The notes under the pieces are model-generated. The model saw only the letters and a program-made list of their open reading frames with translations, did not search any database and was not told the DNA's origin. From Amphiscolops sp. MND2022 (taxonomy: Eukaryota): a stretch of DNA of 64,000 bases. A program made the translations under genes and the position numbers. The stretch is from positions 60,080,001 through 60,144,000 of the forward strand of contig OZ076409.1 of the NCBI GenBank assembly GCA_964187785.1. The letters are read 5' to 3'. Positions 25,668 to 63,489 of this stretch are shown here, piece after piece; position 1 is the first letter of the stretch, and each line of letters opens with the position of its first letter.

Positions 25668-26600
25668 TCGACTGTATAAAACGTCAACAACTCGGGTAAA
25701 CATTGATAGTTATTATCCGGAACGGTATTAACACCGCTCATTCCGGATAGGTACAAAAGTTGTAACACAGGTTTGTTGCGAACTCCCGCGCTAGGAGGGC
25801 TGTTTGGTGAGAAACAATTTCAAAATATAATCAAACAAATTTCTTCTTAAACTGTTCAATGAAAAAAAACAAGATCCTTCAGCGAGGCCCTTTTCACGAA
25901 AAAACCGCACAGTGCCAAAAATACCCAAACCGTAGAGCGAATAGCTAATTGTTCATTCTTTTTGATGTGGAAAAACGCCTCATTGGTTTTCATGAATCAG
26001 TTAATTAAAATAACATCAGATAAATAGATTTATGGTGTCCGGACATTACGCCCAAAGCGGACATTACCAATAGAAGACCGAGACATACAACATTCTTTCA
26101 AAATATTGGGCTTAATGTTCGCTTTGGGCTGAATGTCCTTGGACGTAATGTCGTAGCACCAAATATATTCATTAGGAATTATAACTCCTTTTTCCTAATT
26201 TTTCCCTCAAAATGCTTATTTCGTTAAATACATGTCGAAAATTTATTTAATATCTTCATAGATTTCATATTTCGGATGAAATTTTCTCCGGAAGCGTTCT
26301 CTTGCTGATTAAAAATTCAATTCAAAAAAATATTTAAATACTTGTTTTTCTTGATTTTCCTCAAACCAAAGAAATGTTTTCTCCAAATACTAAGCAGACA
26401 TGAGATGCAAAAAGATTTGGTCTATCAGTTCTCTGCAGAGGACCGTCAACTCTAGTAGGGTAAATGAAAAGTTCCGATTATAAACGTTCTGGACTGGCAG
26501 CGTTTGAACCCGCACTTCCAAATCTACATATTTACCGTTTTCCTAATTAGTCGCAGTTCAGTTTTTGGAGATTGTCGAATGAATTTTACTTTTAGCCCAC

Positions 26601-28299
26601 TGTCGCAGACGGCCGCCTGCGATGGAAATTGGTATACGATTGCATATGGATACTGCAGGGCTTTACCCGGAACAATCCCATTAGATTGAGAGGGCACAGT
26701 GATTTGAGCCAGGAAGTCCAAAGGAACTATTATCAGAACTTTTGTGATAAAAACTGTTTTGTATTATTGTATTACGTAATTCCATACATTTGATAATAAT
26801 ATTGCTCTTAGTTATGCGATAAAACATGCAATTATACTTAAATTTGCTTTAAATTGGACACCAAGGCGTACAGGTAGAGGAAACGCGTTCAAAGTGTTTC
26901 CTCTCCTGTCAGCGCAGACAAGCAGTCCAATTAAAATCAACCAATCACAGGACGCTATTCATTTATTTGCTGTGCTGTATTCATTCCCGTGCTGTATTCT
27001 AAATTAAGAGACTCAAAGGCCATATGCCGCCTAACTGACACAGTCTTTATACCAAACAAAGGCGCGTGGACACTGAGTCCAAAATTGAATATAAGCTGGT
27101 GCGAATACTAGAGATAGTAGTGTGCTATTTTAGAAACGATGCTACTTTAGAAACGCTTTGATTAAACTACATCTCTGAGATTACAAAAGGACTTCCAGTC
27201 CTTTCCCCCCCCATCTTTGCTTCCTTCCCAAAATATCTTGGGTAAAGAATTAGATGAGTAATTTATGCCATGGAAAGCTGTAAACAATGACCCATGAGTC
27301 TATGTACCATTTTGTGTGTACCTATTACATGTAATTAACATGAAATGTTCTACATGTAGTGTTGCTGATGAAATACAATTGAATGGCCTGAAGGGCCACA
27401 TGAACAATCATGAAAGTAGCTGCTACGTTTATATGCGTGCATATACATATACGTGTGTAAATGAATAACGTCATGGCAGTTACTATTTTTAGAAACATGT
27501 TATTACGTTTGTAAAGACACGTTGTCATACATGTCTATTTATAGAATGTTTGTTACTAAAATTAGACTGATGACTCTCAATATTATGTATGTCATGCAAG
27601 GTCAATTATAAATAACCGGGACCCGTGGTCCCGGGGACATAATTTTCCTATGACAAGTCACAGTCAGTTCGTTATTGAATAACCGAATAAAATACTGTTT
27701 GCAAGCTCAAAGATTCCAATTCAAATTCTTTACTCTTGCAACAATCTCTTATGCCTTCTACTAGACGCCAGAAAGCAAAGGCTAGAAAATCTAGAGAGAT
27801 GGACATGTTGTCCGATATAGAAAATATGGACGTGATGTTAGGAAATGGGGGTAGCAATCCCATAGAAAGAGAATTAACTGATGCTATTGAACAATCATCA
27901 GTACAGGGAGACGTAGAGTCGAATGAACACTTGGGAAATCAGTATACTAGCTTTGCTTATGAAAATAACCTTCCTAGGCAAGATGATATTAGACAATCCC
28001 TTGAGACCTTTTCAAATGAATTCAATCTCAGATTATCACAAGAAATGGATTCAATGATGTCCATGATGCATAGCCAAATAAATAGGGCTATCAGTAGTGC
28101 TATCGCAGAAAGGGTTTTCCCGAAATCCAGAACATTGTGAGTTCTATGTCCTCTTCAGTAAACAGGGACACTGAGGCCAGTGTATCGCCAAATAGCCAGG
28201 AAAACAGGGAATGTTCATCCGGGTTTAAATCAAAATTTGCAAAGAAGGACTCACAGTCTGCATGTGATTTAAGAGACATTGCAGGTCGTAGTTATTACA
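26601..28299 (+). repeat. 5' LTR (1699 bp)
   Basis: Starts TGTCGCAGAC and ends GTTATTACA. About 15 substitutions and one 1-bp indel (~28116) versus the 3' LTR, counted by eye. TATAAATA at ~27607, TCAGTT at 27664, AATAAA at 27686-27691. Confidence 0.97.
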
Positions 28300-29438
28300 T
28301 GGTGACAGGAGCTAACGAAACCCAACAGCCAATTCCCGAATTCCTGTCCGGACGAATCCACTCAATCCCAAACCTGGAGAGACAACAATCTAACCACAAT
28401 GTCTCTCTGGATACGACTCTGCCAGCTCCAGACCCTGAGGTCCCAGAGTCAACCCAGGACCCGCTCAACAGATTGGCTGACGTATTAGTCAATCTGCAAA
28501 ACAAACCACAAACGATGACCATCCGACCAGTCCAAACCACACCAATGACATTTGACGGGAAAAGTGAAAAATTTGAACTTTTTGAGGACCTGTTCCACAC
28601 AATGATCAAAATGCAACCGGCCATGACAGAGCAAATGAAAATTAACCATTTTCACTCCTTGCTCAGGAAAGGGGCCCTACAAACTTTCAGGAACATAAAC
28701 TCAATTAACCGTCAAACACTTGAGGACGTACTGGTCATATTCCGGAGGAAATACGTCAAACCGGAATCCCAAGCAACGGCAAAACATAAATGGCATCGGC
28801 TCACTTTTGACCCCAACACCATGAAATTGCCAGATTTCTTGGAAGAACTGAACCAGGGGGCAGAAAAAGCATTTGGCGAAAATGCAAAGAGCATGATTGA
28901 CAGCTTATTGTACGCAAAATTGCCTCCAAAACTCAAACGATCTGTCAACATGGCCCGCCTGGAGAACGGTACATACGAAGAAATTGTCGCTCATCTTGAA
29001 AGAGAGCTTGAACTCAATGCATTGGAAGAGTCTGATGACTTACCAATGGCCACCATGGCCTCTGCGTCTACCAGCAACAACAATTTGCTGTCGAACGGCA
29101 TAAATACCAATAAAGACGCACAATGCTCTTATTGCAAAGCCACAGGCCACTTTTATAAGAGCTGCCCCAAACTGAAAAAGAAGACGGAATTGGAGGACAA
29201 AAATGGCAAAAAGCCCCAACGCCCTACATACCCAGAATGCCCTACTTGCGGAAAGAAAAATCACCCCGTTGAGAGATGCTGGAAAGGGGCTGGAGCACAT
29301 TTACGCCCCAAAAGGACACGTCCTGAAGATAAGGCTGATGACACCTCTGGAGATGAAAAATCATACAAGAAGTCAACTAGCCCCGAAACCACATCTTCAA
29401 GTCATTCATCTTCTCGAAAAACCGATTCAAAAAACTAA
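27751..29438 (+). pseudogene. gag: Gag (~562 aa reconstructed; one 1-bp deletion at ~28116)
   Basis: ORFs 27736-28140 and 28137-29438 fuse when the A present in the 3' LTR copy (AGGGTTATTCCC) is restored. Capsid-like region TFDGKSEKFELFEDLF...HFHSLLRKGAL. Two CCHC knuckles: CSYCKATGHFYKSC and CPTCGKKNHPVERC. Confidence 0.92.
28300..28312 (+). promoter_or_regulatory. Primer-binding site, tRNA-Leu-like
   Basis: TGGTGACAGGAGC immediately follows the LTR terminal CA. It resembles the TGGTGTCAGGAG type complementary to a tRNA-Leu 3' end; the tRNA identity is tentative. Confidence 0.8.
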
Positions 29439-32400
29439 TTTCGCCACGACTCCAAGTTTCCAACCAGATGTCAGTGCGACAATATGTCATATCTGACCCA
29501 CCAAACATTATTTATAAACAAACTCAAAACGATACCACAGGAATGCCATCGACTGTCTGGCAGCAGCAAATGGCCAACGCCCGCATGGAAACTCAACATA
29601 TTATCCATAGCGACCACCCATACTTATATAGACGTACTAGCTACGACAACGACTCGGAAACTCACTTTCGCCCCTTACAAACTGTCGAAGATTATAACCC
29701 TCAATACTATGACCCCGAGTATGGCAAAGACCCGTACTGGGACGAAGAACTATATGACAAAACCAATTTACAATTTCGAAACGAAGATTACCCTCCAACT
29801 GACGACGAGGACGACCCAGACATTGAAGACAACACACTGTCTCGGGCCCTCATTGATCTTTGGCAGCCAAATTTTGATGCAATAATACAAGGAGTAGACG
29901 CCACTCAACAACAGGAAGGCCACAAAGCCTCTAACAGCCTTTTAGATGAAACGGCCTTCCTGCATCTCTTAGTGGCCAAGGAAGGAGAGCCATCCTACGT
30001 TCCCCTTTCAACAAACCTTGGGCTCAAATTTAAAAGACGAATGCTCTATTTCCCAATGGATTTTGGAGAGTTAACCCTAGACGGCCTAATCGACACTGGA
30101 GCCCACTCCAGTGCAATACCGGAAGCAGACCTTAGAAAGATACGCCTATTGGCCCCCCAGTCGATAGTAAAAGAAGGCCCTGCTCCATCTTTCCAAATAA
30201 TGGTCGCAAATGGTGATTTAGAAACCCCAAAGAGCACAGTCGAACTAAAATTGGAGGTGGGAGACATAGAATTTCATGAAATCTTCATTGTAATGGAAAA
30301 ACTGTCTAGCCCCATAATTGGACTGATGTTGCTGCAGAGGAACCACACCGTCCTGGACATGCGCCAAGGTATACTCAATTTCCCTTACTTCTCGATGCAA
30401 TTAAAAACGGCCGACCACAAGTATTCCAATGTAATGGAGCCAATTCTCAACCCTGAAGACATCACCATTCCTCCGAATGACCTTGCAGTCATCTCTATAC
30501 AGTCCCAGATCTATGCCGAAAATGCAGTCACGGGGATATTACAACCCAGTGACCTCCTCCATGAGGAAGGCGACGTCACATTTTGCGCCGCCATAGTCAC
30601 ATTGCACGAAGGGACTATGAACATACATGTCAATAATTTCACTGATCAACCCTACAAACTTAAGAAAGGGTTACATATTGCGAACTTCTCAGTGATGACT
30701 CCTGAACAAATGAAACATGTCCGACCAATAGACCCGGTGTCCACCTGGCATCTATTGAACGGAAATGAGGAAGACGCCATTTACTATTTTAGCAGCCTTC
30801 TTAAGGCCAATAAAAACAACGACCAATATGAACAGTATTGGTTCCCGACACCTGAGAACCCAGGGGACGAAACAACACATACGCCCATCCAGCAAAGAAT
30901 TCACAGAGAATTACGAAATCTAAAAGATATAGAAAATCTTAACCCGCAAGACAATGCTGAATCTAGACAAAAATTCCTTAGCAATTTTGACTGGAAGGAT
31001 TCAATGCTACAACAGCATGAAATCAAACAAATAGAAGCTCTTTTGGTAGAATTTAATGACATCTTCGCCCGACACAGATTTGATATCGGCGTCAACGAGG
31101 AATTTACGGTCAAATTGACCCCGAAGGACGATTCATCAGCTTATAGCCGGAGCTTACCTACCCCAGTCAATCTCAAAGAGGATATATTGGTGGAACTGGC
31201 TTTACTTCATAAATATGGTATTATAACGACACTACCATTCTCAAAGTATGCCAGCCCCATATTCGCCCAGAAAAAACCCAATGGCAAATTAAGACTACTG
31301 GTTGACTTGAGGAAAATTAATAATCTCATATCTGACGATTATATCAATAACAATCACCCAGTCAGCACCTTAACGGATGCCGCGCAGCATATGGCCGGGA
31401 AAAAGCTTTTCTGCAAACTTGATTGCTCGCAGGCCTATCATTGTCTCCCAATGGCCGACCAGAGGTCTATTGAAATGCTCGCTTTCAATTTTGCTAGCAG
31501 GACCTTTGCCTACCGCAGATTGGCGCAAGGCCTCAGCAGAGCCTTATCGGCTTTCTCCAGTTTTATGCGAGAGTATTTAGACCGGGTGATCAAAGCAGAT
31601 CAATGCGCACAATATGTGGACGACATTGGCATCGCAGCCAATGATGCCGAACATCTCATAACCAACCTCAGGGCTCCTTTTGAATGTATCAGACAAGCCG
31701 GACTCAAACTGTCCATGCACAAGTGCCACTTTGGCACTACCGAAATTGACTTTCTAGGGAGAACCATTACCCCTGAAGGTGTAAAACCCCAAAAAGAAAG
31801 AATCACTAACTTCTTGGAAAAGACGAAATTCCCAAAGTCCAAGAAGGCCTTACAACGCTATCTTGGTTTCCTCAATTACTACAGGAATTATATTCCAAGG
31901 CTATCCGAAAAACTAGTTCCCTTCTTCCAATTGCTCAAAAAAGATGAGAAGGTACTAGTGACGCGAGAGCTGGTTGAACAATTTACTGAGATCAACCGCG
32001 ATTTAGACCGATGTAGTCAATTGGCGTTGAAACAACCTCTGCCGAACAAACAACTGGTCCTCATGACTGACGCAAGTTTTACAGCAGCCGGTTACGCCAT
32101 ATTGACCGAAGACGACCCAAATCAAAAACACACTTCTGTTAAAAAATCCTATGCGCCGATTGCATACGGATCTAAAACTTTCACGCCTTCTCAGCTCAAA
32201 ATGTCGATATATGCAAAGGAATTCCTAGCTATATATTATGCATTTAGAGACTTTGGACATATATTCTGGGGAACACCTCAACCTGTGATTATTCTCACAG
32301 ATAACAAATCGGTTACGAGGTTCTTCCAAACCAAGATAATTCCACCGCCACTTTGGAATGCTTGTGATTTTGTAATTCAGTTCAACTTCATCATAGCTCA

Positions 32401-34541
32401 CATTCCAGGCAAGAACAACACAGCGGCAGACTACCTGTCCCGCAGGGAAATGGACCCCACTGAAAAGTTGGTCCTGAAAATACGAGAGGACGTAGAAACT
32501 AGACCGATCGAAGTCAATGTCCAATCGGCCGGCGTGTCAGAGGAAGAGCAAATTTTCTTCACTGAGGAGGACAACGAAACAGAAGAACAGATTTGGGAAC
32601 GGAAAAAACAATCCAAAAAAGGACTCATGGTCCCTGAGACAGTCATCCACATTGATGCCATATCGGAAAATACAATAGAAGAAATTACCAATTTCACACA
32701 AAAATTACGACGAACTAACCAGATACATACTGCTTGAACAGTGTAAAGACCCGATTCTGCTCCAATTGAAAGCAAAACTTCAAAAGGAAGAATTTGCTGA
32801 AGAAATCCTACAACAAGATATTCGGTATAAGTACTATTTGAACAATATAGACCGAATAGTCCTTAAAGACGAAATTGTGACAAGACAGTACTATGACGAA
32901 ATTGGCCAGATCAAATATCATCAAATTCTGTTACCGAAGCACTTAGTTCAAGAACTATTACAAGCAATACATGGTACAGCACATCGCCATCCAGGCATTT
33001 CTAAAATGCTACAGGAAATTCGCCAAAAATATTACTACCCAGGAATTGCAAAACATGTCAAAAAAAGGGTCGAAGGATGCGAAACATGTGCCAAGGACAA
33101 AAGGGCCCCCAACACGGTAATTACCCCAGAATTACTAAATTTGCCCGAATGGGACCTAGGGCCAGAAGATGCCATGCAAATTGACTTATTACCAAATTTA
33201 CCAACCAGCGGCGGATACCAAACAGTGATGACTGCAATAGACGTATTTTCAAGATATCTTTTTGCCTAGCCACTCACTGAGGCAACAGCCGCAAATGTAG
33301 CTAAAGTCATTATCGATATAATGACAAAACACTCGTATTTGCCAACAACACTCATCACGGACAAGGGGTCCGCATTTACCTCAAAAATTTTAGAAGAAAT
33401 TACTGAGATATTGGGAATCACACTGAAATGCGCCACTACTAAACACCCGCAAACTATTGGCAAACTTGAAAGGACTCACGCCTCTTTAAAAACCAACCTG
33501 AAGATGGCCTCAGGGGAATATCGTCGTCAATGGCACAAATATTTACCATTAGCAGTGCTCAACTATAACACTACTTATCACGCTAGTAATGGTTGTGAGC
33601 CTAGCAAAGTCTTCCATGGCCGAATCCCCTACAATGTCCTTGATCATAAATTAGGAAATAACCCTAATAAAAATTTCCTACCAACAACTGAATTTGCGGA
33701 AGAATTACAGCAGAGGACGCAAATCCTCATTGATCAGACAAAAAAGAATATTATGCAGTCGTATTTAAAGTACAAGGAGTACTACGACCGCAAGGCCAAA
33801 GCGGCTCCGCTACAAGAGAAAGACTACTGTTTTGTTCTTCAACCGAAAGCGGATAGTCAAGGCTCCAAAATACCATTTAGGGACTTCCGATGGATTGGTC
33901 CCTTTGTCGTCCAAAAAACCCTACCAAATAACAATTATATAGTGCGTCGTTTAAATACGAATAAAACGCAGATCTTGCACCGGATCAGGCTCAAAAACTT
34001 TGTTCCAAACACCCCATTAGAGGACAAATTTAAAGAAGAGAAATTACAGCCTGATGAGGAGATAGTAATACCGCAAGATGATTTGTATACCATCTCATGG
34101 GAAGCGGACTTTGAGTACGAGCTATTCGAGCCGAAGACAAATGATTGGCCACACACGGCCACGCGTCTGCCACAGGACGCCGCGAACGGAGAAGTCGACT
34201 ATTACGTCACCGAGAATGAAAGCAGCAGCGTAAACGAAAGTGAGCGCAGCAGCGAGAGAATGAATGACAATGACGTCAACGAGAATGAAGTACGGCCAAG
34301 ATCGGCCAGCATCCGTGACGCGTCGTCCCCTCCGAGCGAATCGCCTAGTAGGACGGAAAATGAAAATGACGTCACAAATGATTTAGAAAATGAGAAAATT
34401 GCTTCAAAAGGAGGCGTAGATATTACCGTGCCCGGAATATCGGAAAATGAAAGAAATGAGGAAAATCCTAGCCCTAGAGGAGGGAAATGTTATCTTCGAC
34501 CTAACCCCAACCCCAACTTTACTGATGAATAAAGATACTAG
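29435..34541 (+). pseudogene. pol: Pol polyprotein (protease, RT, RNase H, integrase) with few lesions
   Basis: Protease LIDTGA; RT LRLLVDLRKIN, KLDCSQAYH, YVDD; RNase H LMTDAS, YAKEFLA, ILTDNK, ADYLSR; integrase HGTAHRHPG...CETC, QIDL, ITDKG, KLERTH. Lesions: 4-bp ATAC duplication at 32723-32730, in-frame TAG at 33267-33269, probable premature TAA at 34530-34532 (FTDE*RY*). Confidence 0.95.
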
Positions 34542-34766
34542 TCAAATATGTAAATTAAAGTCCCGGAGGTTTCTTGGACTAAAATGGACACCAATTCTGT
34601 TGGGACTACTCCGACTGTGAATTTTAACACAAACGTACTGTTGACAATAAAAGACTCATTGGCACATAAATTAACACCAAAAATAAAGGCAGACGAAATA
34701 AATAACACGCGAAGTTTGTGATAAATACATAAAAACAGATAAAACACAAATGTACATTATGTACAT

Positions 34767-37700
34767 TTAAGGCTTAGATGCAGATTGCACGGGCCCTGGA
34801 GTAGAGGAACCTCCCATCGGTGGTGATGCTGATCGGAAACCTACTTTCCGTTTCCCCTTCCCAGGAGACTCTTTTCGACGCTTGCTAGTAGTAGGTGAGG
34901 TGGACCTGGAGGCCGAGCGACTGGAAGATGGCGACTTGGTTTTCTGTGAGAGAGACTTATGCTTCTGCCAAAGAATCTTGTAGAAATGAGCTTTTCCAAA
35001 TACATCAACATGAGTCCAAGGGTCTCCAGCCACATTGCCTGTGTTGAATTCCTGCTCTATCTCTCGTAACTTGCTGAGAGAATCATCCTTGGTGCAAATG
35101 GATAAAGCTTCAGTAACCCGGGCCAGGTAGGATTGTGCAGGCAAAAGGACATCTCCCCAACTACACTTTGGCCTTTGAGCGTGAACATCGTGGAAGCGGA
35201 TGGGGGGAAGCAAAGGAGTGTTTTCAGTTAAGCACATACAGCTTAATTGGAACAGGCGGTAAAGATGAGCCCGATTACGGAGTTCAGGCATGGAAGAAAG
35301 CAAATTGATCATGTCGGGAATACCGTTAGGGGCGTCCTTCAAAGAATGGTAGGCCTGGCGGAAATGTCCAATAAAATCCAGGTACTCATCGCGGCAGTCA
35401 TTTTCAGGCGAACCTTCAAGCCAACCTCGGAGACTGAAACTCTGGTAAAGCGCACTGAAACAAAAGTTGGCTTGCTCGAGCGGTAGACACAAGAGGATGC
35501 TAGGGTCGAAGCAGGCCATCCCACACACAATGTTGGCGTTTAGACTAACATGGCCCAGAAAGTTCTCTAAGAGGGGTACAATATAACTCCTCGCCTTAGC
35601 TACAAACTTCTCCTTAGCCTCTTCAACCAATGAGGTCATGTTGGAAATAGGCCCCTCTTGGTCACAATGGTCTCGTTTCACCTTGGCTGTTGCGGCAGCA
35701 TCCAGGTCTTGCTTTAACCTCAACCGAGTGAGGAAATCTCGAGAGGACAATTGACGGAGATCAGCAGTTCGGAGCACGGGCAACTGCGTCCAGTCAGTAT
35801 CTTTGGGGAGGTGCTTTGGTAAGAGGGCCCGATAACAGAGTTTTCTTACAAAGTTGTTCAGCTGGCCGAAGGTAAAAAACCCCGAATCTCGGTGTCCCAC
35901 CAGGCTCCTTTCGAAACAGATGTTATCTAAACAGTGAGAACGAATAATAGCAAACTGCCCTCAACGTCTCCTGGACTTACCAGACTAGTTCTCCTCCCTT
36001 AAACATGAAGTATGAAGCCTAGACAAAAGATACTTACAATCGTACACGATTCTTCCGTAGAACTCCAATTTCAGCAAGAAGAAGTCGTCGCTGATGATTT
36101 GCCACTCAAGGCTTTGTGGCTAAAAGGAAACAAGAATCACCAGCTATGATCGGGCTATAAGGGGGTAGGAATCAAACCATGACCTAAACCAGCTAATAAG
36201 GCAAAATTCCAACCTTGTTCTTGACTCCAGCCATTTCATAATTGGGTGCAATCAGAGTGATGTGGTCCAAGAATGCTGTCCAATTCACTATGATCTCCGA
36301 GCATATGGTGGGGATAGAAAGGAGACGCAAATCCCAATTGCTAATGGCCCACAAAACAACCTGACGTGATAAAAATGTACGAGGAACTCGACTTTGAAGC
36401 CCAAAGCATAAAAACCAACCTTAGAGAGTTCAGGGGCTTTGACCATCCAAGGCTCGTCCAAACTGTGGGTTAGATATGCCAGCAGATATTTGAGTTGCGA
36501 ATAAAAATCGATTCGCCCAAAAACACTTCCTTCTCGTTTGTGCATAAGTTTGTGGAGAGATGTCACTTGGTAACGAAAAGGGTACTCGATACTCTTCTTT
36601 AACAAGGAAGACTCCTCAACGGCACGAAGAACACTAGCAGTACATCCACTCATGCAGACTATCTGGGGGGCTGTGGACAAGAGTGACAAGAGTCGTGCCA
36701 CGACGAGTAATTGACTTCGATCAGGATCAGCGGCCAGGCTGTACTGGAATAACTGGAGCTTCACGAAAAACCCTAACTTCCAGTAACGGAGCGATGCAAT
36801 CTCCTTGCTTCCCTGTGGCTCAAATTCGATCGAATATAGTCCGCTGTCATTAACTGTCTGCGCCACATCCTCCATTCCACGTAGGAAAACGTGATGGAAA
36901 ATAGCCTGAAACAGAATTCTTACTTAAAAGAATATAGAGGACGAATAGTTTGTTATGGATCCTTCCCCTTTTTCCCCAAACCCATAATTAAAGATGAGGT
37001 CAGTTAACGCTACACATACCGTGATTCTGGTGGAACTCCAGTCAAGATTCCCGAACAGCTCCTGGTGATTAGTGAAATTGCCGACCTCTGTCCAGAGTCC
37101 TTGCAGGGTCGCGAGATCGCCGAAGTACGGGACAAACCGCCCAATCAGAGATATTTGAGTCCCTGACCGGATGTCTTCAAAATTAGTCAATCCCCCTGCA
37201 CTTGACATATATTCGTCATAGAAGGGGAACCGTGGGCCGATGTCAACTAGAGGAACTGACTCAAATAGTGGCTTTTCTTTCTCCAGCTCAAACAGGGTAA
37301 GGATGTGCCCATCTCTTCCTCTGACGGAATGAATGACGTTGCCAGAAATTTTGTCGACCTTGCCAAAATGCTCAAACCTCCATCGCTGGTCTCTACGCAA
37401 ATGGCCCTCGGAGCTGTAATGCCGGATGATCTCTCGTGCACCTTTCGAATATATAGATACGTTGGTCTTACATATCTGGCAATAAAATTTGTGCTTGTTA
37501 TGCACGGGGTCAAGGGGGCCGGTTACAAACACTTTTGTCCACTGTATTCCCTTGAAGTAGGAGGACTTCATCACCTTGCCAGGTCGTGGTTGCAGTTTGC
37601 GCCTTTTTTGAGGAGGGCTAACTTCGGAATGTTGATGCTTGGTTTGTGGACACATCTGACAGAGAGGCTCATAGTCGCCCTCGCTGTACCCTGGACTAGG

Positions 37701-38794
37701 GATGGTGACATCTCCTGATTGTGATGTCACGTTTTCTCTCCTCGTCGCAAGTGTTTGAGTTGCGGAGGTACTTGCATCGGAATCAACTTCCTGACCGAGA
37801 ATTGTACCGGTTATGTCTTCATCAGTCTCATATGCTCCGCTGGTATACCCGTCAGTCGTATAGCCTTCACTGTCCGATTCCCCTTCAGAACTAGCTGATG
37901 TGGCCCTTGCAGGAGGCTTCCTCGGATCAGAGCTTTTCTAAGCTGCCCTGTAGTGTGTCCCTTTCCTCCGTGGACAGCATGCAAAACCAACGACCGCATG
38001 GCATGCAGAGAAGACTTCACAGTTTCATCCGAAATTGTTTTTAGCACGGCATGAATTTGGGGTTCGGTGAACGCAACTGTAGTATGTCCCCGAGGAAGGT
38101 CAACGGGGGCACTTTGAGCGAAATGTTTACGCAGCATAATTCGCCCATTAGCTGACAACTCCGTTGGCAGGGAGGGCCCTTTCTGTGATGAAGGTCCTTG
38201 TTGACTGGTGGTGTTTGAACATTCGGGCTCTGGGGATTTTCCTGGTGCAGTTTGTGGATCAAGTTCAACTATGCTGGATGTGGGCCTGTCAGTCAATCCG
38301 TCCACGCCCGCACTGTCGTAGACGCTTTCAACTTCACTGGCATCCGTCTCAAAATAACATTTTCTCTGCTCTTCTCCGATGTCAAAAGTACCAAGATCGA
38401 ACAAGTCGGCTTTCTTCTGTTGTCCAATGTTGGCCTGCTCTGTTCCAGACTGTGAGGCGGATAGGGCCTCTGACTCAGAAACCTTGGGAGGATGTGGGCC
38501 TGCCTCTCCTTGGGGGAAACCTTCGCTTGGTGCTGACAAAAATGTGACGTCCAAACTAGAATCCATCTGAGCTAAGTGATGTAAGGTCTGTTCCGCGAAT
38601 GTGGAAAGGCTCTCTTCAGTGTTGCCACTGCTCGAAGATAGGTTGGACAAAGGACGAACTCCAGGGAGGACATCTATCTCAGTCGGTCTCTTCCCTTGGG
38701 AAGGGTCAGCATGCCGCTCTGGCAAGCCTTGGACAGGAACGCCGGGACCAGCAGTAGTCAATTCACTATTTTCAGTTTGCTGTTCAGTCGCCAT
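34767..38794 (-). CDS. Spliced antisense accessory gene; hAT-transposase-like protein with BED-like zinc finger (~1216 aa; one frameshift at ~37915)
   Basis: Exons 38794-37020, 36905-36420, 36360-36214, 36119-36038 and 35926-34767. GT-AG introns of 114, 59, 94 and 111 nt join these exons in frame with no internal stops. Zinc-finger motif CQICKTNVSIYSKGAREIIRHYSSEGH. Confidence 0.85.
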
Positions 38795-40059
38795 GCCTAA
38801 GCAAAAGGAAATAAAATCAAGCGGGAACCTTCCTGAATAAGAATCCATCACCGCTTTAAAAATATTCTTCCGGAAGTGAATAATCTGAACTCGAGTGAAC
38901 ACTAGAGTTATTGGACAGGAAGTACGTGAACGGAAGAGAGTTCTGATCAAACCTCAAAAGTTCAATTTTGAAACAGAAAACTGAAAAGAAACCTTAGCCT
39001 ACTGACCTGTTTGAGCGTGGTCTCCAGGGAACTTGTTGTCGGTGTCCTCCATGAGAAAGGATGTATTGAGACAAATTGTTGTTGCTCGGTGCAGATGGTA
39101 AGATCACTGTGGTGGGAGTCGCAAAGCTGGGGACTGGATGTCGATTTTCCGCAGTGTTCCAGAAGAATCCACACGGATAAGGACGAGTGGACACTGAGTC
39201 CAGGGATGAAGCCGGAATGTAATGGAATGAAAATATAAATAGAAGTGACCTAAAGTCTAACTATCGACTAAAATAGAAGTGGATAAGTACAATGATGGTT
39301 AAATACCGGATAATAGAAGAACAAAAAGTTAAATTGAAAGTAAGGAATTGAAAAGACGAATAGGCGATGTGACAAGATGTCAAGATTGGAGTTCGTGGCT
39401 ATACAGTTTGGTGTCAAATTCATTGCTATTTACAATTTATGGCATTATGTGGATAGAGTCTGCCAGCGATATCTACATTTTCCTTATTTATTTCGAAAAC
39501 TTTATTTCGCAAAGTTATTTCATGATTTTATTTTATTTTATTTTACTTTATTTTGTTTTCAAGGCCATATTATTTTATTCCTTATATGGATTTACGGCCT
39601 TGGATCGCCATTTTATCAATGGAATCATATTTACGAAATTTGATTGGTTACCACCAGGAAGGCGAGACAGCGTGGCCTCCGACCGAATTCTCACCCTCTT
39701 AAAACTTTCAAAAGGACTATGAGTGTTAATAAACACTCATCTCGGTACTTAAGAAGTGAAGGTGATGATGAGGGCCATGAGTGTCAATACTGCCGCTGTC
39801 GGCAATTTCAAAGTGATTATAATAACTAGTTAAAAGAAAGTTACCCGGAAAATTTTGTTATTGAAAAATAACTCGGAATCGAAAAAGGAAAACCCGGGGA
39901 ATAGCAAACCGGGAGGCAACGAGACTCAGCGGACTGATAAGAGAAACGATCGCCATTATTAATTTTTCAATCGATCAGATCAGTCGCTCTAGAAAAGCCA
40001 CCTCGACTTGAAACTCTTACATTATCAAAATTGCCAAGAAAATATTAAAAACCAGATCA

Positions 40060-40880
40060 ATGTCTGATTTTCCTGAATTGTTCCCTATGGACTTCCTGGG
40101 TGCTGCTCTATCTGAAGGGGCTCCTGCAATAATTTATATCTCAAGTGATGAAGACGAGAGAATGGACTCCTTCGACGGAGACTCGGTGGATGACGTTAAC
40201 GTTTCATCTGAAGAAGAAATGTCAGACATCGAAATTATGGCGAGATGTGTAGAAAGACAAATGGCTGAACCCATTGCTATTCCTAACTCTGAAAAATCTG
40301 AGACTCAAGTTAGGTGCGGAACGCCCAGACCGGACTTACCGCCCTTCCCCGTCTTCACTCAGCACTTTTTCAACCTGGGCATGGGCAATGGGCCTATTGG
40401 GAGAGATGGCCGTGTAAGACCTAACCACCCTATCAATATCTGCAGGGACTTACGACCTAACGTAGATAGCCCAATGTCACCACCGCCAGAAGACAGAGGG
40501 CCGAATTGTGGACAAGAAACACCAAGCTGTTCCTACTCTACGGACCCTACCCCGGTCGAAAGCGTGGCTAACCACTTCAATGACATGACGGTGTCTGGGA
40601 ATGCTGGCTTACTGGGCTGCTCAGACTGTGTGGTCTGCGGGAAACCAGTCCAGCAAATACAAGACGAGACAGTCAACGACTACCTCAGCAAAACAGTTGT
40701 CCCAGGAGAAACACTGGCTGAGACTGAGAGAAGAAAGAGAGCTTTCTTGGACGGCATGGCAGCTGGAACATTTTATTAATGCCAGGGGGAGTGTCGCAGA
40801 CGGCCGCCTGCGATGGAAATTGGTATACGATTGCATATGGATACTGCAGGGCTTTACCCGGAACAATCCCATTAGATTGA
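40060..40880 (+). CDS. Accessory sense ORF (ORF3), unknown function; probably extends into U3 after a 1-nt deletion at ~40774
   Basis: 239-aa ORF 40060-40779 with an acidic N-terminus and CSDCVVC. Adding one T to the TTTT run continues it as FLLMPGGVSQTAACDGNWYTIAYGYCRALPGTIPLD* to 40880. Confidence 0.7.
40784..40791 (+). promoter_or_regulatory. Polypurine tract
   Basis: AGGGGGAG directly before the TG of the 3' LTR. Confidence 0.8.
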
Positions 40881-42491
40881 GAGGGCACAGTGATTTGAGC
40901 CAGGAAGTCCAAAGGAACTATTATCAGAACTTTTGTGATAAAAACTGTTTTGTATTATTGTATTATGTAATTCCATACATTTGATAATAATATTGCTCTT
41001 AGTTATGCGATAAAACATGCAATTATACTTAAATGTGCTTTAAATTGGACACCAAGGCGTACAGGTAGAGGAAACGAGTTCAAAGTGTTTCCTCTCCTGT
41101 CAGCGCAGACAAGCAGTCCAATTAAAATCAACCAATCACAGGACGCTATTCATTTATTTGCTGTGCTGTATTCATTCCCGTGCTGTATTCTAAATTAAGA
41201 GACTCAAAGGCCATATGCCGCCAAACTGACACAGTCTTTATACCAAACAAAGGCGCGTGGACACTGAGTCCAAAATTGAATATAAGCTGGTGCGAATACT
41301 AGAGATAGTAGTGTGCTATTTTAAAAACGATGCTACTTTAGAAACGCTTTCATTAAACCACATCTCTGAGATTACAAAAGGACTTCCAGTCCTTTCCCCC
41401 TCCATCTTTGCTTCCTTCCCAAAATATCTTGGGTAAAGAATTAGATGAGTAATTTATGCCATGGAAAGCTGTAAACAATGACCCATGAGTCTATGTACCA
41501 TTTTGTGTGTACCTATTACATGTAATTAACATGAAATGTTCTACATGTAGTGTTGCTGATGAAATACAATTGAATGGCCTGAAGGGCCACATGAACAATC
41601 ATGAAAGTAGCTGCTACGTTTATATGCGTGCATATACATATACGTGTGTAAATGAATTACGTCATGGCAGATACTATTTTTAGAAACATGTTATTACGTT
41701 TGTAAAGACACGTAGTCATACATGTCTATTTATAGAATGTTTGTTACTAAAATTAGACTGATGACTCTCAATATTATGTATGTCATGCAAGGTCAATTAT
41801 AAATAACCGGGACCCGTGGTCCCGGGGACATAATTTTCCTATGACAAGTCACAGTCAGTTCGTTGTTGAATAACCGAATAAAATACTGTTTGCAAGCTCA
41901 AAGATTCCAATTCAAATTCTTTACTCTTGCAACAATCTCTTATGCCTTCTACTAGACGCCAGAAAGCAAAGGCTAGAAAATCTAGAGAGGTGGACATGTT
42001 GTCCGATATAGAAAATATGGACGTGATGTTAGGAAATGGGGGTAGCAATCCCATAGAAAGAGAATTAACTGATGCTATTGAACAATCATCAGTACAGGGA
42101 GACGTAGAGTCGAATGAACACTTGGGAAATCAGTATACTAGCTTTGCTTATGAAAATAACCTTCCTAGGCAAGATGATATTAGACAATCCCTTGAGACCT
42201 TTTCAAATGAATTCAATCTCAGATTATCACAAGAAATGGATTCAATGATGTCCATGATGCATAGCCAAATAAATAGGGCTATCAGTAATGCTATCGCAGA
42301 AAGGGTTATTCCCGAAATCCAGAACATTGTGAGTTCTATGTCCTCTTCAGGAAACAGGGACACTGAGGCCAGTGTATCGCCAAATAGCCAGGAAAACAGG
42401 GAATGTTCATCCGGGTTTAAATCAAAATTTGCAAAGAAGGACTCACAGTCTGCATGTGATTTAAGAGACATTGCAGGTCGTAGTTATTACA
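40792..42491 (+). repeat. 3' LTR (1700 bp)
   Basis: Near-identical copy of 26601-28299, preceded by a purine tract and followed by the TSD CCCAC. Confidence 0.97.
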
Positions 42492-43023: not shown

Positions 43024-43931
43024 GTACCTGTTTGAAACCTAGATCATGCAATACTCGTTCATTGCAAGATCTTGTGTATACTGATTGAGGCAACATGCAA
43101 TCCTTGCTATGAATGAGTGATCTTACAAAAATATGATATCCTTGCAATAATTTTACAAGAAAATTTATTATTGCAGGATCTTTCGAGCAAACATTTCCCT
43201 TCCGAGAAATTGCAAGAAACCTAATTCCATATAAGAATTTTGCGAGGAATACATTGCTTGCAAGGATCTTGCAAGAACCCATTATAGACAATGATCTTGC
43301 GAGCTTCTTCCATGCAATTCAAAACAATGCATTAACTTGCAAGATCTTGAAAGCTTTTTGGAAGAGCTTTGTATATAAAGCATATTTCTTCAACCAAGAC
43401 AAATAAACAAGTTTCAGGGAGTTGGCAAAATCAGAATGACACACCCAACAAATTTCAATCAATTTTGTGAATTTTTTTCTCACGCAATTGTGTGCAAAAT
43501 ACATCTGGCTCCACTATGAAAACACGAACAAAACACTTCTATTTGACACGTCAATGGTCTAAACAAAACAGACAAAGTTTTCAAGAATTGAAGTTGTTGG
43601 TCTTGTTTGATCTGTGTGATAAAGTCTCTATCAAAAAATCAATCATAATTAGTAACAATTAGGAAAGTAAAATTCAATAAAAGAAAGACAGTGACATTTT
43701 GAACGAAAAAAAAAAGAAATTTAGGCGACAATAAATTCAAAACAAAAAAGTCTAAAACCAAAGTTTGAATTCCAGGTACTTCAATCCAATTTTCAAACTT
43801 ACTTTTTCAGGAGCCTTGTTTCAGTTATGCAATTTCTGTCAGGCAAAAATGCATGCACGTCAGAAGTCAACTTTTCCTCAGAAACTTTGAGCAAAGAAAT
43901 CAATATAGTTATATTTTATCAATACTGTATA

Positions 43932-46900
43932 TGTAGTATTTTGAAAAGGTTACTAGGTAAAAACGAATTAGTAGTAGGAGATTTCTTTATGGCTCAATAT
44001 GAAAGATGTTCACGACTTTTTCTATCTACACTCTAGCAAAACATGTATAAAATGGTATCACGATTTAGTACAAACAAAAAGGGTTGTTAACAAATACAAC
44101 AAAACAAAAGAAGTCATTTGATAATTGCTAGTCTAAAGTCGTCATTGTTTTTGATTGGCACTTTTTTCCGAATAATTCGGTTCGGTATTTTACACCGTAT
44201 AACCGGTTATCAGTTCTCCATCCGCGTGGAGATTTAGCTCGTCTTCCGGTGATGTTGTAAATGGCCGGTATCCGTCTCTTTCGGAAGTGTCATTGTTTTC
44301 GAAGTCGCTCTCTTCGTCTTCTACCTCTCCTTCTTAGCTCTCAGTGTCGGTTTGGGCTTTTTTATTTTGCACTCTTTGAGTTTTCCGTTTAATACATCCC
44401 TCAGGATTTCATTCCATTGGATGTATTTGCCGTCGACTCCTCTCAGGCAGTGTCTGTTTTTCGGGGTGATGGTGTCTCCGATCTTCGGTGCACGTTCTGT
44501 TTTCTTTTCTTTCGAACTTTTCTTTTTCGGTGATTTTTCTGTCATTGCTTTCTCTTCTGTGTTTGTCTGGGCAACGACAAGATGGTTTGATACTTCTCCG
44601 TCACTGTTGCGTGATATAATATTGGTATCTTCGGTCTACTTTCGGCTGGAACGGATCATTTCAACCATTTAGACAGGAATGATTTACCGCCTTGTATTAA
44701 ATTTGTACGTTCGGTTCTCCGTTTTCGGCTGTGATGTAATTCAAATGGTGTTTTTTCAATCCCGTGTGTATTTTAAGTAGCATTACGTTAAATGCTCTAA
44801 TTACGCAATCGGTGAAACACAGACTGTCTTCCAGATTGGCTAATATTAGGTTCTTCGTCGTCTGTATAGCACCTTCTCCCGCGCCGGTGCCGGTATGTAG
44901 TCTCAGTGTACTATATTCGATTTCAATACTTCAGGATTTGCAAAATTCTTTATATTCTTTCGACTTAAACGCTCTGCCTTCGTCAAGTTCAATTTTTTCG
45001 AGAAGTCCGTATAAATTGAAATTTTGGTTTAAGAAGCTCAATTCTTCTTTTGTTTCCGACGACTTGCAAATTTTTGCGGTTGGCCATTTACCGAACCTAT
45101 ATACGGCTATTAATAGTTGTTATTCGCCGTTTAATTTTTTGTTGTTCAATTTCCCGGAGAAATCATTTTTTCTATTTTCCCGGTTCGGTTAATGTTTGTA
45201 GTTCTCTTGTTTCATTTTTTGGTGTTTGATAGATTAAATTCTTACCCGATGCCATGCAATCTACACAGAATTTTTTTCGGTCTTCGTTATCTATGGAGAT
45301 GCTTGGCCACCAATATACCCGGGCTTCGGTTAGCATTTTAGTTGTTTCGGCGTGGCCGAAGTAGTGTTTCCATTAGGTTCTTTCTCAGTTCTGCTGAGAC
45401 AAAAATTTTCTCGTCGTTAAATGTTTGTCCCCATGTGTTGCATAACTTCTCAAATGTCGGTAGATATTGCTCTAGTGCCGTGTTCTTCTGTCCTCGTCTC
45501 ATGGCATCTCTGAACTGGTTGAGCTCGGCGTCGGTGGCGGACGCAGCAATGAGCGTCTTTAGGTCAAGCATGAAGTTGAATTCTGCTTTTTTTCACTTCT
45601 TCGGCGGCAGTTTTGTCTCCGGTCTTCTTGTCGATGATTTGGTTGATTTGGATAAAATGTGCTTCCTTTCCGTCAGCGTTGTAGGCCTTCAATTCTACGA
45701 TCGGGAAGTTGTCTCCTACGGTCTTCTGTCTTTTGCCTTCACTCTCCAGTTCATTCTGTTCGACCTCTTCCCGTGGCTGATTTTCTTCTTTTCTGTCTTT
45801 GAGTGGCTGGTATCCTCCGTCGAATCTATTTGCTCGGTTGAGCAATTCTCCGTCTATTTCCGCTAATTCTTCGCGGCTCTTTTTATTGGGTCTTGGCGGA
45901 ACTCAAACTTGGCGTTGACCATTCAGGTCAAACTTCCTTCTCATCGTTCCGGGGCGTGATACTAGCCTCCGATCCACTAGTCTCCGGGCTTTTTTTCCTC
46001 TAATTATCTCCATGATTTCTGCGGTATCTCCCCAGTGAAAGTAATCTTGATCCATGTTTCTCTTTGGAGAAAATTAATTTGGTGAAATTTGATTTGAATT
46101 TTTGTCGGTTGAAATAAAAGTTTCGAACTTTTCTCGGTAAGTGATGCAAATTTCGCTGTTATGTGCTGTTTCTTAACGTTTCAGTCTTCGTCGAACGTTC
46201 TAATGCGTTTTGGTTGGTTGTGAGATTTTATTTCGCTCGTTTTACGTATTTCGGTAGTGCTTTGTGATTCGTCCGCGAGAAGTGAGCCGTATTAGATGTT
46301 TATTTCGGCTTGCTCGGAAAGAACATTTATCACGTATTTTTCATCCTACGCGTTTTCGGTCGTTACTTCTTCTACCGCATTTCTACTTAGAAAGTCGGTA
46401 AACTCTAAATTACTTCCTGCAATGTGTTGGAGGGCATTATCAAAGTGAGCTAATCGATCTAGCCATCTTGTTAGCTTTGCGCTGTATTGTTTATTACACC
46501 AGTTTCTTTTAATCAACGGTTCATTTGCTTGATGGGTCTGTATAACGAAAGACTTTCTTCCCGTATAAATAAAATCAAATTTTTGTAAGCCCGATACCAC
46601 GGCTAATAGTTCCTACTCTCCAATCGAAGAGTTTTTCACTTTCGTTTAAGTATCTGCCACCGAATGCTATCGGTTTAATTTCTCCGTACGATTGTTTTTG
46701 ACACAATGTTATTCCAAGACTTGCGTCGGTCGTCACTATGTTTTCCCGGTCTTTCGCATAGTGAGCCAGACAGGGTTCGTCGGTTAATAACTTCTTAATG
46801 CTCTTGAAATCATCTTCTTGTTCATTTCCCCAATCCATTGGGATCTTTTTTAATAGTCCTCGCAGTCTTTCGGTCCTTTCCTGTAGTGTCAGTAAAACTT

Positions 46901-49376
46901 TTGCAAGATATTGGATTGCTCTCAGTAAGGATTTTAATTGTTTTTCATTCTCCGGGTGTTTCAGATCAATAATTGCCTCCACTTTTTCTTTGTTCGGTTT
47001 ATTACCGTTTCCATCGTTTCATCGTTTTCATGTTCGGCCATTTGTTTTGTTTAGGAAAAGATTGGATTACTTTTCACTTGCTAGGTATCCAGCATCTTCT
47101 AGTTTGTTCAAAACAATGAATATTTTCTTTTCGTGATCTTCCTGGCTTCCTCCGGTTTCGAAAATTATGTCGTCTTACCGGGCAGGTGTTGAATATTCTA
47201 ATGTTCGGTCAATTGTTTCTTGAAAGATAGTCAGGATGTCGGCCAATCCGTAAAAGCCTTTCTTGAATATTTAAAATCCGGTAAAGTTTCCTTCGGTTTT
47301 TGAGATTACACATTGTCGGCTGGCTTATTTTGACAAATTCATCTGGCCGTATGTGTAGTCTAAATCTATTTTCGAGATCATTAGATTCTTTGTCCGGTCT
47401 CTAGTGATTTCTACAGAAATTTGGTTCAAAAACTCCTCCAAGTTTTGCATGTGTTGTCTGATTTCGTACAACTGTCGTTTAATGTTCTCCAATCTAATGC
47501 GATCTTTTTTGAATTGTCATTTTTTTACCGTGATAACCATCGGGTATACGAAACAATCTTCGTCCACGTGTTTCTCTTTCTCCAAGTGTCGCGTTTTTAT
47601 TTAATTTTTCCACTTCTTTACCGACTTCTTTTTGGAGATGTAGTGGTATCGGTCTCGCTTTTTGTTTTACCGGATAATGTACCGTTTGAGTTGCATATTT
47701 ATTTCGGTATCTTTTATTGTAGTGTTGTTCTTGAATAGATCCGGAAATTGTTCGATCACTTGTTTCTTTTCTGATTGGTTATTTTCGTCCAATCGGAAGT
47801 TTCTGATCGTCAAGTTGAATTTCTTTAACCAAACCATTCTGAGTAGCAATGTTATGTCATTTCTTTCGGTAATCAGTACTTGAATCTTCTGTTTGTTGTT
47901 CTCGTATTCAAAATCTACCGGTATTTGTCCGCGGAATTTCACTTCATTTTTGTTAACATCTTGATACCGATGTTTTACATTTTGGATTTCGGTTTCCTTC
48001 AGGATGTTGTCGTCTGCCGGCTTTTTTGAAATTGGTGATCCGGTATCAAACATAAATTCTTTTTCGGTTCCGTTTATTCTCACTCATGTCGTCAAGTATT
48101 TGTTTTGGTCGGTAGTTCTATTTATCTTCTCAATCCGGTGTATGCTTGATTCTGATTGGTCAGATTTGTTTCCAATCATTGTTGCTTCTTCTTCGGTAAC
48201 ATTGCGTATTCTCGTTTGTTATTCTCCTTTTGTCTGCATGCTCGTGCAAAGTGTCCTTTTCTTCCAAAGTTATTGCATAATTTGTCTATTGCCGTGCAAT
48301 TGTTTGAAGGGTTCCAGTTTGGTGCGTTGCAGATATTGCACGGTTTTTTATTTGTTGTTCTCTTTTTCGGTCTAGTACCGAATTTTTCTATTTTCGTATT
48401 GCTCCTTCTTTTGTTTTTCCCGGTTTGTGATGAGGGCTGCTGGTATGTTTTTTTGGTTTTTTCTTTCGTAGGTGTTCTGTTTGACCATTTCGATTGTTTT
48501 TTTCAAATGCAGTTTCATTTCTTTCATTAATTCGTCTCAGATTTTTGTGTCTGTGATTGCGGTATAGAATTTTGAGATGAGTAAATCTTCGGCTGTTATT
48601 CCTTCGAAAGCGCACTTTTTTTCGATTTCTATCAGTCTTCGCTAGAAATCTTCCGGTCGGTGTCTGGGCTTCTGACTGTCTGATCCAGACGAATTCTGCG
48701 CGGTTGTGATAAATGTTTCGTTTCGGTAAGAAGTTATTCGTTGAACAATATAATCAAATCTTTGATCTTTATTTTGTCCGGTTCTGTTTTGTACTCTGCC
48801 CGCGTCATTTGGTATGAGGCTTCGGGTCCAATACCCCATTTGAAATCTTTTTGTATTTCTCATTTTCTTTTTCGACCCAACCGTTTTGTGTTATGTCAGC
48901 TCCTCGTATCAATTCGGCAAAATTTATCTTGTATTTTCTCTTTGATTTTTGTCTGAATCTCTCGAGCCACTGTTTTGGTGTATAAATTCTTTTCCCGTCT
49001 GATGTGGCCTCGAGGTTCGGTACTTCAATTTAACTTGTTTCTTGGGTCATCTTTTTTGTTGCGGTAAAATTAAATGTTTGTTAGTAATGCTGACTGCGCT
49101 ATGTAATATTTTGTAAAGGTTACTAAGTAAAAACGAATTAGTAGTAAGAGATTTCTTTATGGATCAATATCAATGGTGCTCACGACTTTTTCTATATATA
49201 CTCTAGCAAAACATATGTATCAAATGGTATCACGATTTAGTACAAACAAAAAAGGTTGTTTACAAATACAACAAAACATAAAAGAGTCATTTGATAATTG
49301 CTAGTCTAACGTGATCACTGTTTTTGATTGGCACTTTTTCCGAATAATTCGGTTCGGTATTTTACATCGTATAACA
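43932..49376 (-). mobile_element. Decayed Ty3/Gypsy LTR retrotransposon (possibly Mag-like)
   Basis: ~273-bp LTRs at 43932-44204 and 49102-49376, roughly 90% identical by eye. TSD GTATA at 43927-43931 and 49377-49381. Degenerate PBS TAGCGCAGTCAG on the minus strand at 49101. Fragments: protease FMFDTGSPI (47667-48083), RT/RNase H IVTTDAS and LTRWLDRLAHFD...DFLSR (46346-46982), integrase remnants ~44750-45400. Many stops and frameshifts. Confidence 0.9.
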
Positions 49377-54030: not shown

Positions 54031-54953
54031 CCCTAGGTTGAAAAAATGTAATTCTTGAAAATATCTTCCAAGATGTCTTGCAAGATCTTGCAAGTCAATG
54101 CATTATTCTTGCAAATTGTCTTGCAAGATTCTTCCAAGATTTTTGCAAGAACTGAATTGACATTGTGTTATAATTGCTAGGAAAGTGTCGAACTTTCAAG
54201 ATATTTGCAAGCTTCGACTGAGAATTCAAGGTGCCCAAAAATCTTTTCGTTCCATTGAACATCACCATTAATAATCAACTCCACTAGTCCCTATACTCTA
54301 TTATCAAAAAAGCGATTCCAGACATTTTTATTCAGAATGTTTTGAATAAGATTTTAATAGACAAAAAATCTGAGTTCAGTCACCTCAGTTTTGTCAATTT
54401 AATATGACTTAAGGGATACTGCCGGATAGATACAGCCAGAGTCTCACTTCTTAAATTGTGAAGGACCCAAAAATGCAAACTCTAGAAAAATAAAACTCTA
54501 GTGTGATTTTAGAAATAGGCCCTAAAAGCCTATTGTTTGTAATAAAAAACCGATATTTGAAACTCAGTTTTGATGTAGTACATTGGAAAACAAATGGCTT
54601 TCTTCTATCATATACACGATGGAGACTTTGAAATTAGGCCGAACGAACCTAAATGGATTATAGGTGTACATTTTTTGAAAAAAAAACGCAAAACAAGAGA
54701 AAAAAAATCTTTTTCGACAATTGGAGTGGCTGTTGACTACGTTATCATAATTCATTTGTTGTCTTGCAAGTTTTGCATGGTCTTGCAAGATTCTTGCAAG
54801 ACTGGTATTCTAATTTATCATCTTGCAAGGTTTGCATTGTCTTGCAAGATTCTTGCAAGACTTGCATCGGTTTGCAAGAAGCTTGCAAGAATACCAAGTT
54901 TTGTAAGAAACTTGCAAGATAAGTGCAAGTTTTCAATTTTTTCGAAACTAGGG
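54031..54953. mobile_element. Non-autonomous CACTA/CMC-like element
   Basis: Terminal inverted repeats (TIRs) CCCTAGGTTGAAAAA / TTTTTCGAAACTAGGG, 2-bp TSD AG, subterminal CTTGCAAG arrays at both ends. Confidence 0.75.
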
Positions 54954-55535: not shown

Positions 55536-56669
55536 CCCGGATTGACCCTCTTACTAGCATCTTGGCTATCTTGGCAAGATCTTGCCAAATTCTTACTACA
55601 TCTTGGCAACCATGGAACCAATGGCAAGATTCTTATTAAGATCTTACTAAGATAATACATTATCCCAAGATCGTATCTTAGCACGATGGACAAAAATCTA
55701 AGATTTTATAAAAACACTATACCTTCGGTACAAGCAGCCGAAACTCTATCTAAACGCTAATTTCACCCAACAACGACTATTTCTACCCAATTTCATAATC
55801 AAAATGCCTCAACCCGCTAAAATAATGTGCGAAAATTTACGATAACGTATTCTGGCTTCCGAAGTCCTGACGAGAATCTTAATAACTCTTCGCCTGCTTA
55901 AGACTGAAAAATGCGAATGCACCAAATGGAAGCTCATTTTAGGAACTTTTGAAAACTTGTAACGCATCACTCCTGTCGATTCCAGACGCGGAGACAAATG
56001 CGCTTAAACGTCCAGAGCTACTATCGGAAAATTATACAGCTCGGGAATTATAATAAATTATTATAAATCGGGAAATGTTTTCAAATTCATATCTCCAGCT
56101 TTTTTGAGCCTGTTTCAGCAGTCCTATTCCTGCTGGAAACAGCGGCCATTGCCCAGTTTTTGGGTAATGATGTAGCTCGAGGCTTTTCTGACGCCGTTAT
56201 TGGCCTCGATTTTGCCATTGATCGAACAATTCAATCAGTGCCTCCTTAAATATACAGTATAAGCACTCTTCAATTAAATTTTATACCTTGCTAACAGAGA
56301 ATTGTCATGTCTAACATTGTAAATCTGCATAGATCATCTATGCAGATTTACATTGTTAGACATGACAATTTTTTATTAGCAAGGTATAAAATTTAATTGA
56401 AGAATGCTTATGCTGTATATTTAGGGAGGCACTGATTAAATTGTTCGATACATGGTGTATATTTTTGTTGACTTCCTTTCAGATTTTTTCTGCCCAAATA
56501 GGATTTTACAATGAAATTTTTCTTGGTAACATGGCTCTCTTGATAAGATTTTGCCATGGAATTTTGCAATTCTTGGCAATATCGGCAAGATCTTAGCTAA
56601 GATTTTTCCAAGATCTTCGCAAAATCTTGCCAAAATCTTACTAAGATATCCATGGAGGGTCGACCCGGG
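55536..56669. mobile_element. Non-autonomous CACTA/CMC-like element
   Basis: TIRs CCCGGATTGACCCTC / GAGGGTCGACCCGGG, 2-bp TSD TA, subterminal CTTGGCAAGATCTT repeats. Confidence 0.75.
56221..56449. repeat. 229-bp near-perfect palindrome
   Basis: 114-bp arms around a single C at 56335, with about 8 mismatches by eye. Confidence 0.93.
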
Positions 56670-63458: not shown

Positions 63459-63489
63459 TAACATTTTGCGAAAATTCTAAACACCTTTA

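Follow-up and report, generated by a model that had tools for sequence, protein, structure and literature searches.

An antisense transposase-like gene shared by Ty3/Gypsy retrotransposons and a giant CACTA-type DNA transposon of Amphiscolops

The locus

The window, the whole 64,000-nucleotide stretch analyzed here (C1:60,080,001-60,144,000 of the 1.07 Gb Amphiscolops genome that was searched), contains a complete LTR retrotransposon at 26,601-42,491 with a gene in antisense orientation. The element is bounded by the TSD CCCAC (26,596-26,600, and again directly after the 3' LTR), and its 1.7 kb LTRs (26,601-28,299 and 40,792-42,491, plus strand) are of the TG...CA type (TGT...ACA) and 99.06% identical pairwise. 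A PBS-like sequence, TGGTGACAGGAG (28,300-28,311, plus), and a polypurine tract (40,782-40,791, plus) were recognized by sequence. Gag has a zinc knuckle (27,751-29,438, plus), and Pfam matches in pol (29,381-34,541, plus) follow the Ty3/Gypsy order of protease, RT, RNase H and integrase. Because gag starts inside the 5' LTR (ATG at 27,751), the PBS lies within the gag frame (27,751-28,311, plus) and the first ~180 gag codons are repeated in the 3' LTR. The insertion is recent yet dead: gag is frameshifted near 28,118, pol is frameshifted near 32,726 with a stop near 33,269, and the antisense gene and a second conserved accessory ORF are also broken.

The second accessory ORF (40,012-40,877, plus; frameshift near 40,775) encodes ~280 aa with one CxxC, runs into the 3' LTR where it ends, and tracks LTR type; a Pfam search returned no match for it. 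A dUTPase-like stretch between protease and RT (30,452-30,700, plus) lies below the Pfam cut-off (E 0.012) and was found in every Gypsy relative mapped (28-100% identity). Such a stretch in pol is unusual for Ty3/Gypsy.

On the minus strand, the antisense gene has a long exon (38,796-37,020) that encodes a Ser/Thr-rich N-terminal extension, a basic NLS-like stretch, a finger and a helical domain, and that has one frameshift in the window copy, near 37,911. It is followed by an exon for an RNase H-like core (36,905-36,420; fold taken from relative L149), an exon with a degenerate TRW-helix region, LRLLSIPTICSEIIVNW (36,360-36,214), an 82-nt exon (36,119-36,038), and a last exon (35,926-34,767) for the helical insertion domain, the C-terminal part and a basic Ser-rich tail. 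The four introns are GT-AG (37,019-36,906; 36,419-36,361; 36,213-36,120; 36,037-35,927), and splicing joins the last four exons into one open 624-aa 3' part. The initial annotation had bounded the gene at 34,767-37,560; it really begins farther upstream, probably at the ATG at 38,794, just behind a splice acceptor. A stretch that precedes this acceptor, MDSYSGRFPLD (38,884-38,797, minus), is conserved across alleles and may be a trans-splice or promoter signal. An upstream 46-nt micro-exon (39,052-39,007, minus) is tentative, with support in 1 of 13 relatives.

Conservation of the antisense gene

According to a spliced aligner, subfamilies as little as ~39% identical share intron positions to the codon and phase, with lengths free to vary. 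The third intron is missing exactly from the L047/L049, L150, L153 and L158 copies, and the second from the distant L103/L109 branch. Three informative pairs gave dN/dS of 0.11, 0.06 and 0.08; synonymous sites are saturated in 15 of the 20 pairs tested (dN 0.12-0.64), and two near-identical pairs (dN/dS 0.72 and 0.42) are uninformative at dS < 0.01. Because codon and phase are kept, single introns are absent exactly and dN/dS is low, the pattern is more than chance, and this is almost certainly a conserved, functional gene.

Three protein searches of the genome returned at least 150, 108 and at least 150 matches. In the database, the last exon has 432 relatives and the core exon 145; ten that were looked up are unnamed ENA gene calls, and most core-exon matches resemble the L103/L109 branch. 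The best matches of P0131 and P0061 in the Amphiscolops genome reach only 29-32% (among 105 and 114 candidates scored, respectively), and the family therefore probably extends to other genomes.

Probable hAT ancestry and loss of catalysis

All motifs listed in the initial annotation are present in the minus-strand translation, in the order given there. Its structural expectation, similarity to Hermes transposase, was also borne out by predicted structure: Hermes is the top match for the N half in both VIA lists, and both protein halves tile Hermes in order. The antisense protein shares with Hermes (PDB 4D1Q/8EDG) the succession of finger, helical domain, RNase H-like core, helical insertion and C-terminal part, its predicted fold being colinear, at only 8-12% identity in structural alignments. 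The large helical insertion after an RNase H-like core is characteristic of hAT, and a weak Atlas feature match to hAT is independent of the structure comparison. Pfam and HHalign gave no match to Dimer_Tnp_hAT (PF05699) or any other profile. We consider descent from a hAT-type transposase likely.

hAT elements have TIRs and an 8-bp TSD, whereas the gene has neither around it; its flanks offer only one AT-rich 12-bp inverted match, and none of the 36 fetched loci is a free hAT element. The protein further differs from hAT transposases in lacking DDE, CxxH and TRW and in having a long N-terminal arm. The protein does not belong with the active hAT transposases, as the triad and TIR tests both fail; an intact DDE triad together with hAT TIRs and an 8-bp TSD, the combination that the initial annotation had named as contrary to its reading, was looked for and not found. 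ZBED, ZNF862, GTF2IRD2 and SLEEPER are hAT proteins domesticated and kept by the host; the antisense gene, in contrast, is kept by another transposon.

The annotation's view of a catalytically dead hAT-like transposase agrees with 30 aligned copies, none of which has the DDE triad; the acid sites were assigned from motif register and secondary structure, not by residue-level superposition. The first acid, which had been taken as lost, is not simply so: an E-x-E is kept, the column being E in 26 rows, D in two and L or V in two, and in 27 rows another E stands two positions before it. The second site is S in 28 rows, followed by G (28) or C (2), and both candidates for the third are non-acidic throughout (C, S, G, R or W). 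In the window, the first-acid E is at 36,821-36,819 and the second-site S-G at 36,650-36,645; the last exon lacks the catalytic Glu, and the best guess for the third site is a Cys (35,165-35,163). Ten of 16 rows have an E/D behind the LSC helix, but it is not invariant and its register does not fit. CxxH and the TRW tryptophan are absent in all 30 copies. None of 120 core-exon database matches has D[GN]A or CxxH, and D[GN]A is present in 90 of 120 genuine hATs. Judging from these residues, the protein very probably lacks DDE catalysis.

The C2H2 BED-like finger (37,487-37,401; C-x2-C-x15-H-x4-H) is conserved. It aligns to the Hermes N-terminus and equally to TUT fingers, superposes on the TUT1 finger (45 residues, rmsd 1.2 A) and on TUT4 fingers, and has no zf-BED Pfam match. 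A basic stretch directly before it recurs in several lineages, and the C-terminal basic tail contains KRRK. The N-terminal extension, initially described as acidic and Ser-rich, is indeed Ser/Thr-rich (S+T 21-27%) but only mildly acidic (D+E 13-17%).

Alleles and backbones

Many old alleles of the antisense gene recombine onto near-identical LTR/pol backbones. Among the 14 full elements compared, three backbone types have LTR, spacer and RT 93-100% alike (the window element with L031 and L045; L041, L049 and L099; L043, L047, L095 and L107). Antisense alleles do not follow LTR type: one backbone carries alleles just ~60-66% alike in DNA, and the same allele occurs on two backbones (95% for L047/L049, 89% for L041/L043). 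Between L041 and L095, integrase dN is 0 (dS 0.046) and antisense gene dN is 0.44. One border of the swap falls ~0.5 kb upstream of the gene start, the other roughly where pol ends. Within the window's clade, identity across eight alleles is 83% in the finger region, versus 51-60% in other regions; the putative DNA-reading part is therefore constant within the clade while the rest diversifies. Finger identity between clades is 50%. Internal tandem duplications of 2.3-3.5 kb in L033, L105 and L119 include part of the antisense gene.

Transfer into a giant CACTA-type transposon

The 36 loci fetched were selected for diversity, not at random; 28 are in a Gypsy context, with pol or integrase antisense downstream (counting L101, which lacks pol but whose twin L119 has it, and L153, which has fragments), and eight are in a CACTA-type element. 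The latter is 35.3 kb long, with copies 98-99.7% identical to each other. It has the features of EnSpm/CACTA (CMC) elements, with the ends assessed in the first variant: TIRs that start CCCCAG in all four copies, a 2-bp TSD clear in three of the four, a 31-bp subterminal repeat and a tnp2-type transposase. The transposase ORF (654 aa) matches DUF1258 above the cut-off (38.3 bits) and, below it, Transposase_21 (E 7e-4) and DUF4218 (E 1.5e-3). There are also two weak SET-domain ORFs on the minus strand (L125 1127-2017, E 0.075; 3392-3931, E 0.015), which presumably resemble H4K20 methyltransferases. One copy, L129+L125+L093+L094, spans C2:29,298,732-29,334,034, and two ORFs (L125 8655-8960 and 9553-9888) look BEN-like by eye, with no Pfam support.

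Among the matches listed, the cargo gene occurs in at least nine copies 96-100% alike and in a second variant 78% alike. Longer second-variant copies lie at C6:13.73-13.77 Mb, C6:60.04-60.07 Mb and C8:57.61-57.65 Mb; in this variant, introns are expanded to ~1,012 and 453 nt (L155/L156) and there are many more 88-bp units.

Quick ML trees place both cargo variants among Gypsy rows within a single clade of nine rows. The other two major clades and the distant branch are Gypsy only, and grouping all CACTA rows together is rejected (p-AU 0.03). The last codons of Gypsy pol follow the gene stop, antisense, in both CACTA variants (58-70% identity). This fossil and the nesting within a Gypsy clade give the direction of transfer, and there is little doubt that the gene moved from Gypsy to CACTA. 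CACTA probably captured it twice.

The pol tail as a candidate target

The donor's pol-tail unit has been multiplied along the CACTA element. One copy carries 29 instances of an 88-bp unit, grouped in about seven clusters. The unit matches the donor-clade pol tail (80-85% to L121 and L153) and is the sister-clade counterpart of the window's pol-tail region (34,180-34,440, plus), a candidate target region with TGACGTCA at 34,271 and 34,367. Of the genome's 96 exact 28-mer matches, 84 are no more than 40 kb away from the CACTA family's best 14 transposase matches; at two of those 14 (C4 and C7) the repeat is present with no cargo among the matches listed. Matches of the unit with no nearby transposase match (C10:22,767,167-22,769,283; C11:44,727,725; C4:23,257,477) may be non-autonomous derivatives, or a satellite that arose from it.

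Pol tails of the window's clade have two to three TGACGTCA palindromes at 96-bp spacing, and all 19 pol tails examined have at least one. L103 and L109 have ten and seven, versus 0.3 expected. These palindromes could equally be host bZIP sites or reflect coding constraint. L103/L104 and L109/L110 form a distant Gypsy branch with 2.45-kb LTRs, integrase 56% identical to that of the window and a strongly diverged antisense gene.

Possible function

So, what might the antisense protein do? In the explanation that we prefer, at a probability of roughly 0.55 as a whole, the gene would be an ancient accessory of a Ty3/Gypsy lineage, derived from a whole hAT-type transposase in which DDE chemistry was lost and zinc finger, fold and probably multimerization were retained. 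The initial proposal that a class I element captured a class II transposase fits an antisense Gypsy gene with a hAT-like fold. Because the gene is antisense, its introns would stay in the genomic RNA and survive reverse transcription, and the conserved introns suggest that the gene is expressed through a spliced mRNA of its own. The protein would most likely enter the nucleus, where the finger would bind a short motif repeated within the element that encodes it, the pol-tail repeat being the candidate, and the long Ser/acidic N-terminal arm would activate transcription or keep host silencing off. Allele diversity would fit conflict with host defence. The CACTA element captured the gene and amplified the pol-tail unit, as VANDAL transposons do with VANC targets. 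A DNA-binding activator or anti-silencer is modestly favored, and the findings suggest a portable helper protein by which mobile elements stay active. More tentatively, and with some doubt on our part, a dead hAT transposase may now serve animal transposons as a portable module for sequence-specific anti-silencing or activation, having been domesticated by an LTR retrotransposon and not by the host, diversified into many interchangeable alleles and exported to a giant DNA transposon that built binding-site arrays. If true, the gene would have been relayed from class II to class I and back to class II, and animals would have a counterpart of VANC whose candidate target can be named; the recipient CACTA also has histone-methyltransferase-like SET ORFs.

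A protein of the same origin might instead act by contact, as a decoy or dominant-negative that titrates a host silencing factor or enters the multimers of genuine hAT transposases and poisons them, with allele diversity reflecting escape from, or pursuit of, a partner. The divergence of non-finger regions and their free reassortment across backbones would suit this, as would the many genuine hATs in the genome (at least 150 matches) and usefulness to both class I and class II elements, which fits a general anti-host function. However, it is the finger that is best conserved within a clade and changes between clades, and a pure decoy would not need the donor clade's own pol-tail unit to be amplified; we regard this as unlikely. 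A direct role in retrotransposition, as an RNA-binding export or packaging factor (matrin/TUT-type finger) or an integration-targeting tether, is improbable: the TUT1 and TUT4 superpositions and the gene's presence in Gypsy lineages with integrases just ~56% identical are in its favor, but the gene is intact, introns included, in a DNA transposon with no RT or integrase, and it reassorts independently of both. An origin in a different RNase H-fold family (Mutator/IS256, P element or a host protein), with the hAT motifs as mere coincidences of the common fold, is a poor prospect in light of the first rank of Hermes for the N half, the ordered tiling of both halves and the independent Atlas indication. 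That the gene is a neutral passenger, an old decaying hAT insertion, is hardly credible unless the data are misaligned, given open frames with saturated synonymous sites, dN/dS of 0.06-0.11 and conserved splice sites; many copies, like that of the window, are broken, but these are broken in gag and pol as well.

Comparison with known systems

To our knowledge, counter-silencing by animal transposons is largely open, and the proven sequence-specific systems are those of plants. The gene family provides natural alleles and two unrelated carriers, along with candidates for both the factor and its DNA target, which makes binding and function directly testable; the 88-bp arrays of the recipient CACTA are a natural experiment that singles out the candidate target. 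Gypsy elements have antisense extra ORFs that have long gone unexplained, and for one of these the family suggests an origin; it also records gene traffic between two transposon classes with a direction readable from a fossil.

The TRP28 ORFs of plant Retand/Grande Gypsy elements are likewise a conserved antisense gene between pol and 3' LTR, proposed to encode a nuclear DNA-binding regulator, with tandem repeats nearby; they are described as having no similarity outside these elements and no known origin (PMC11963269). Unlike TRP28, the gene here is spliced, looks like a whole class II transposase in origin and moved into a DNA transposon. VANC of VANDAL and TnpA of Spm, the latter derived from a transposase (bioRxiv 10.64898/2026.08.24.746577), are also transposon-encoded non-catalytic factors whose targets are amplified as tandem repeats (PMC5735166; bioRxiv 10.64898/2026.08.24.746577). 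They are factors of plant DNA transposons with proven function, whereas here the gene belongs to an LTR element, its function is putative, and there is no one-to-one pairing between alleles and targets; 'retrotransposon' and 'LTR' have no occurrences in bioRxiv 10.64898/2026.08.24.746577.

The plant mobile domain (PMD; PMC5418596) and fungal TET/JBP (PMC12730594) are accessory genes similarly found in unrelated transposon superfamilies, with anti-silencing proposed for both. MULE PMDs came from host genes (PMC5418596) and TET moved among DNA transposons (PMC12730594); here, in contrast, an integrase fossil records direct Gypsy-to-CACTA transfer, and the cargo is a transposase relic. The giant planarian Burro Gypsy and the 16-20 kb Chondrus En/Spm elements are also large, with accessory ORFs aimed at host systems (PMC6431247), but the CACTA-type element here differs in its 35.3 kb length, SET-like ORFs and hAT relic. 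PMC6431247 does not mention hAT or antisense as whole words, and no such gene is described in the available text of PMC6431247 or PMC9911081. A literature search, with Repbase entries, subscription papers and supplements outside its scope, found no description of the gene.

Other features of the window

A 5.2-kb unit at 43,930-49,340, between direct repeats 78-89% identical, has strong T skew and many minus-strand ORF fragments and is probably another decayed retroelement. TTGCAAGA-rich repeats at 54,754-54,897 resemble CACTA subterminal repeats and are possibly a MITE. Long inverted repeats lie at 107-14,398, 56,215-56,455 and 62,413-63,792 (arms of 296, 120 and 230 nt), and the flanks of the window contain several 33-175-bp tandem arrays.
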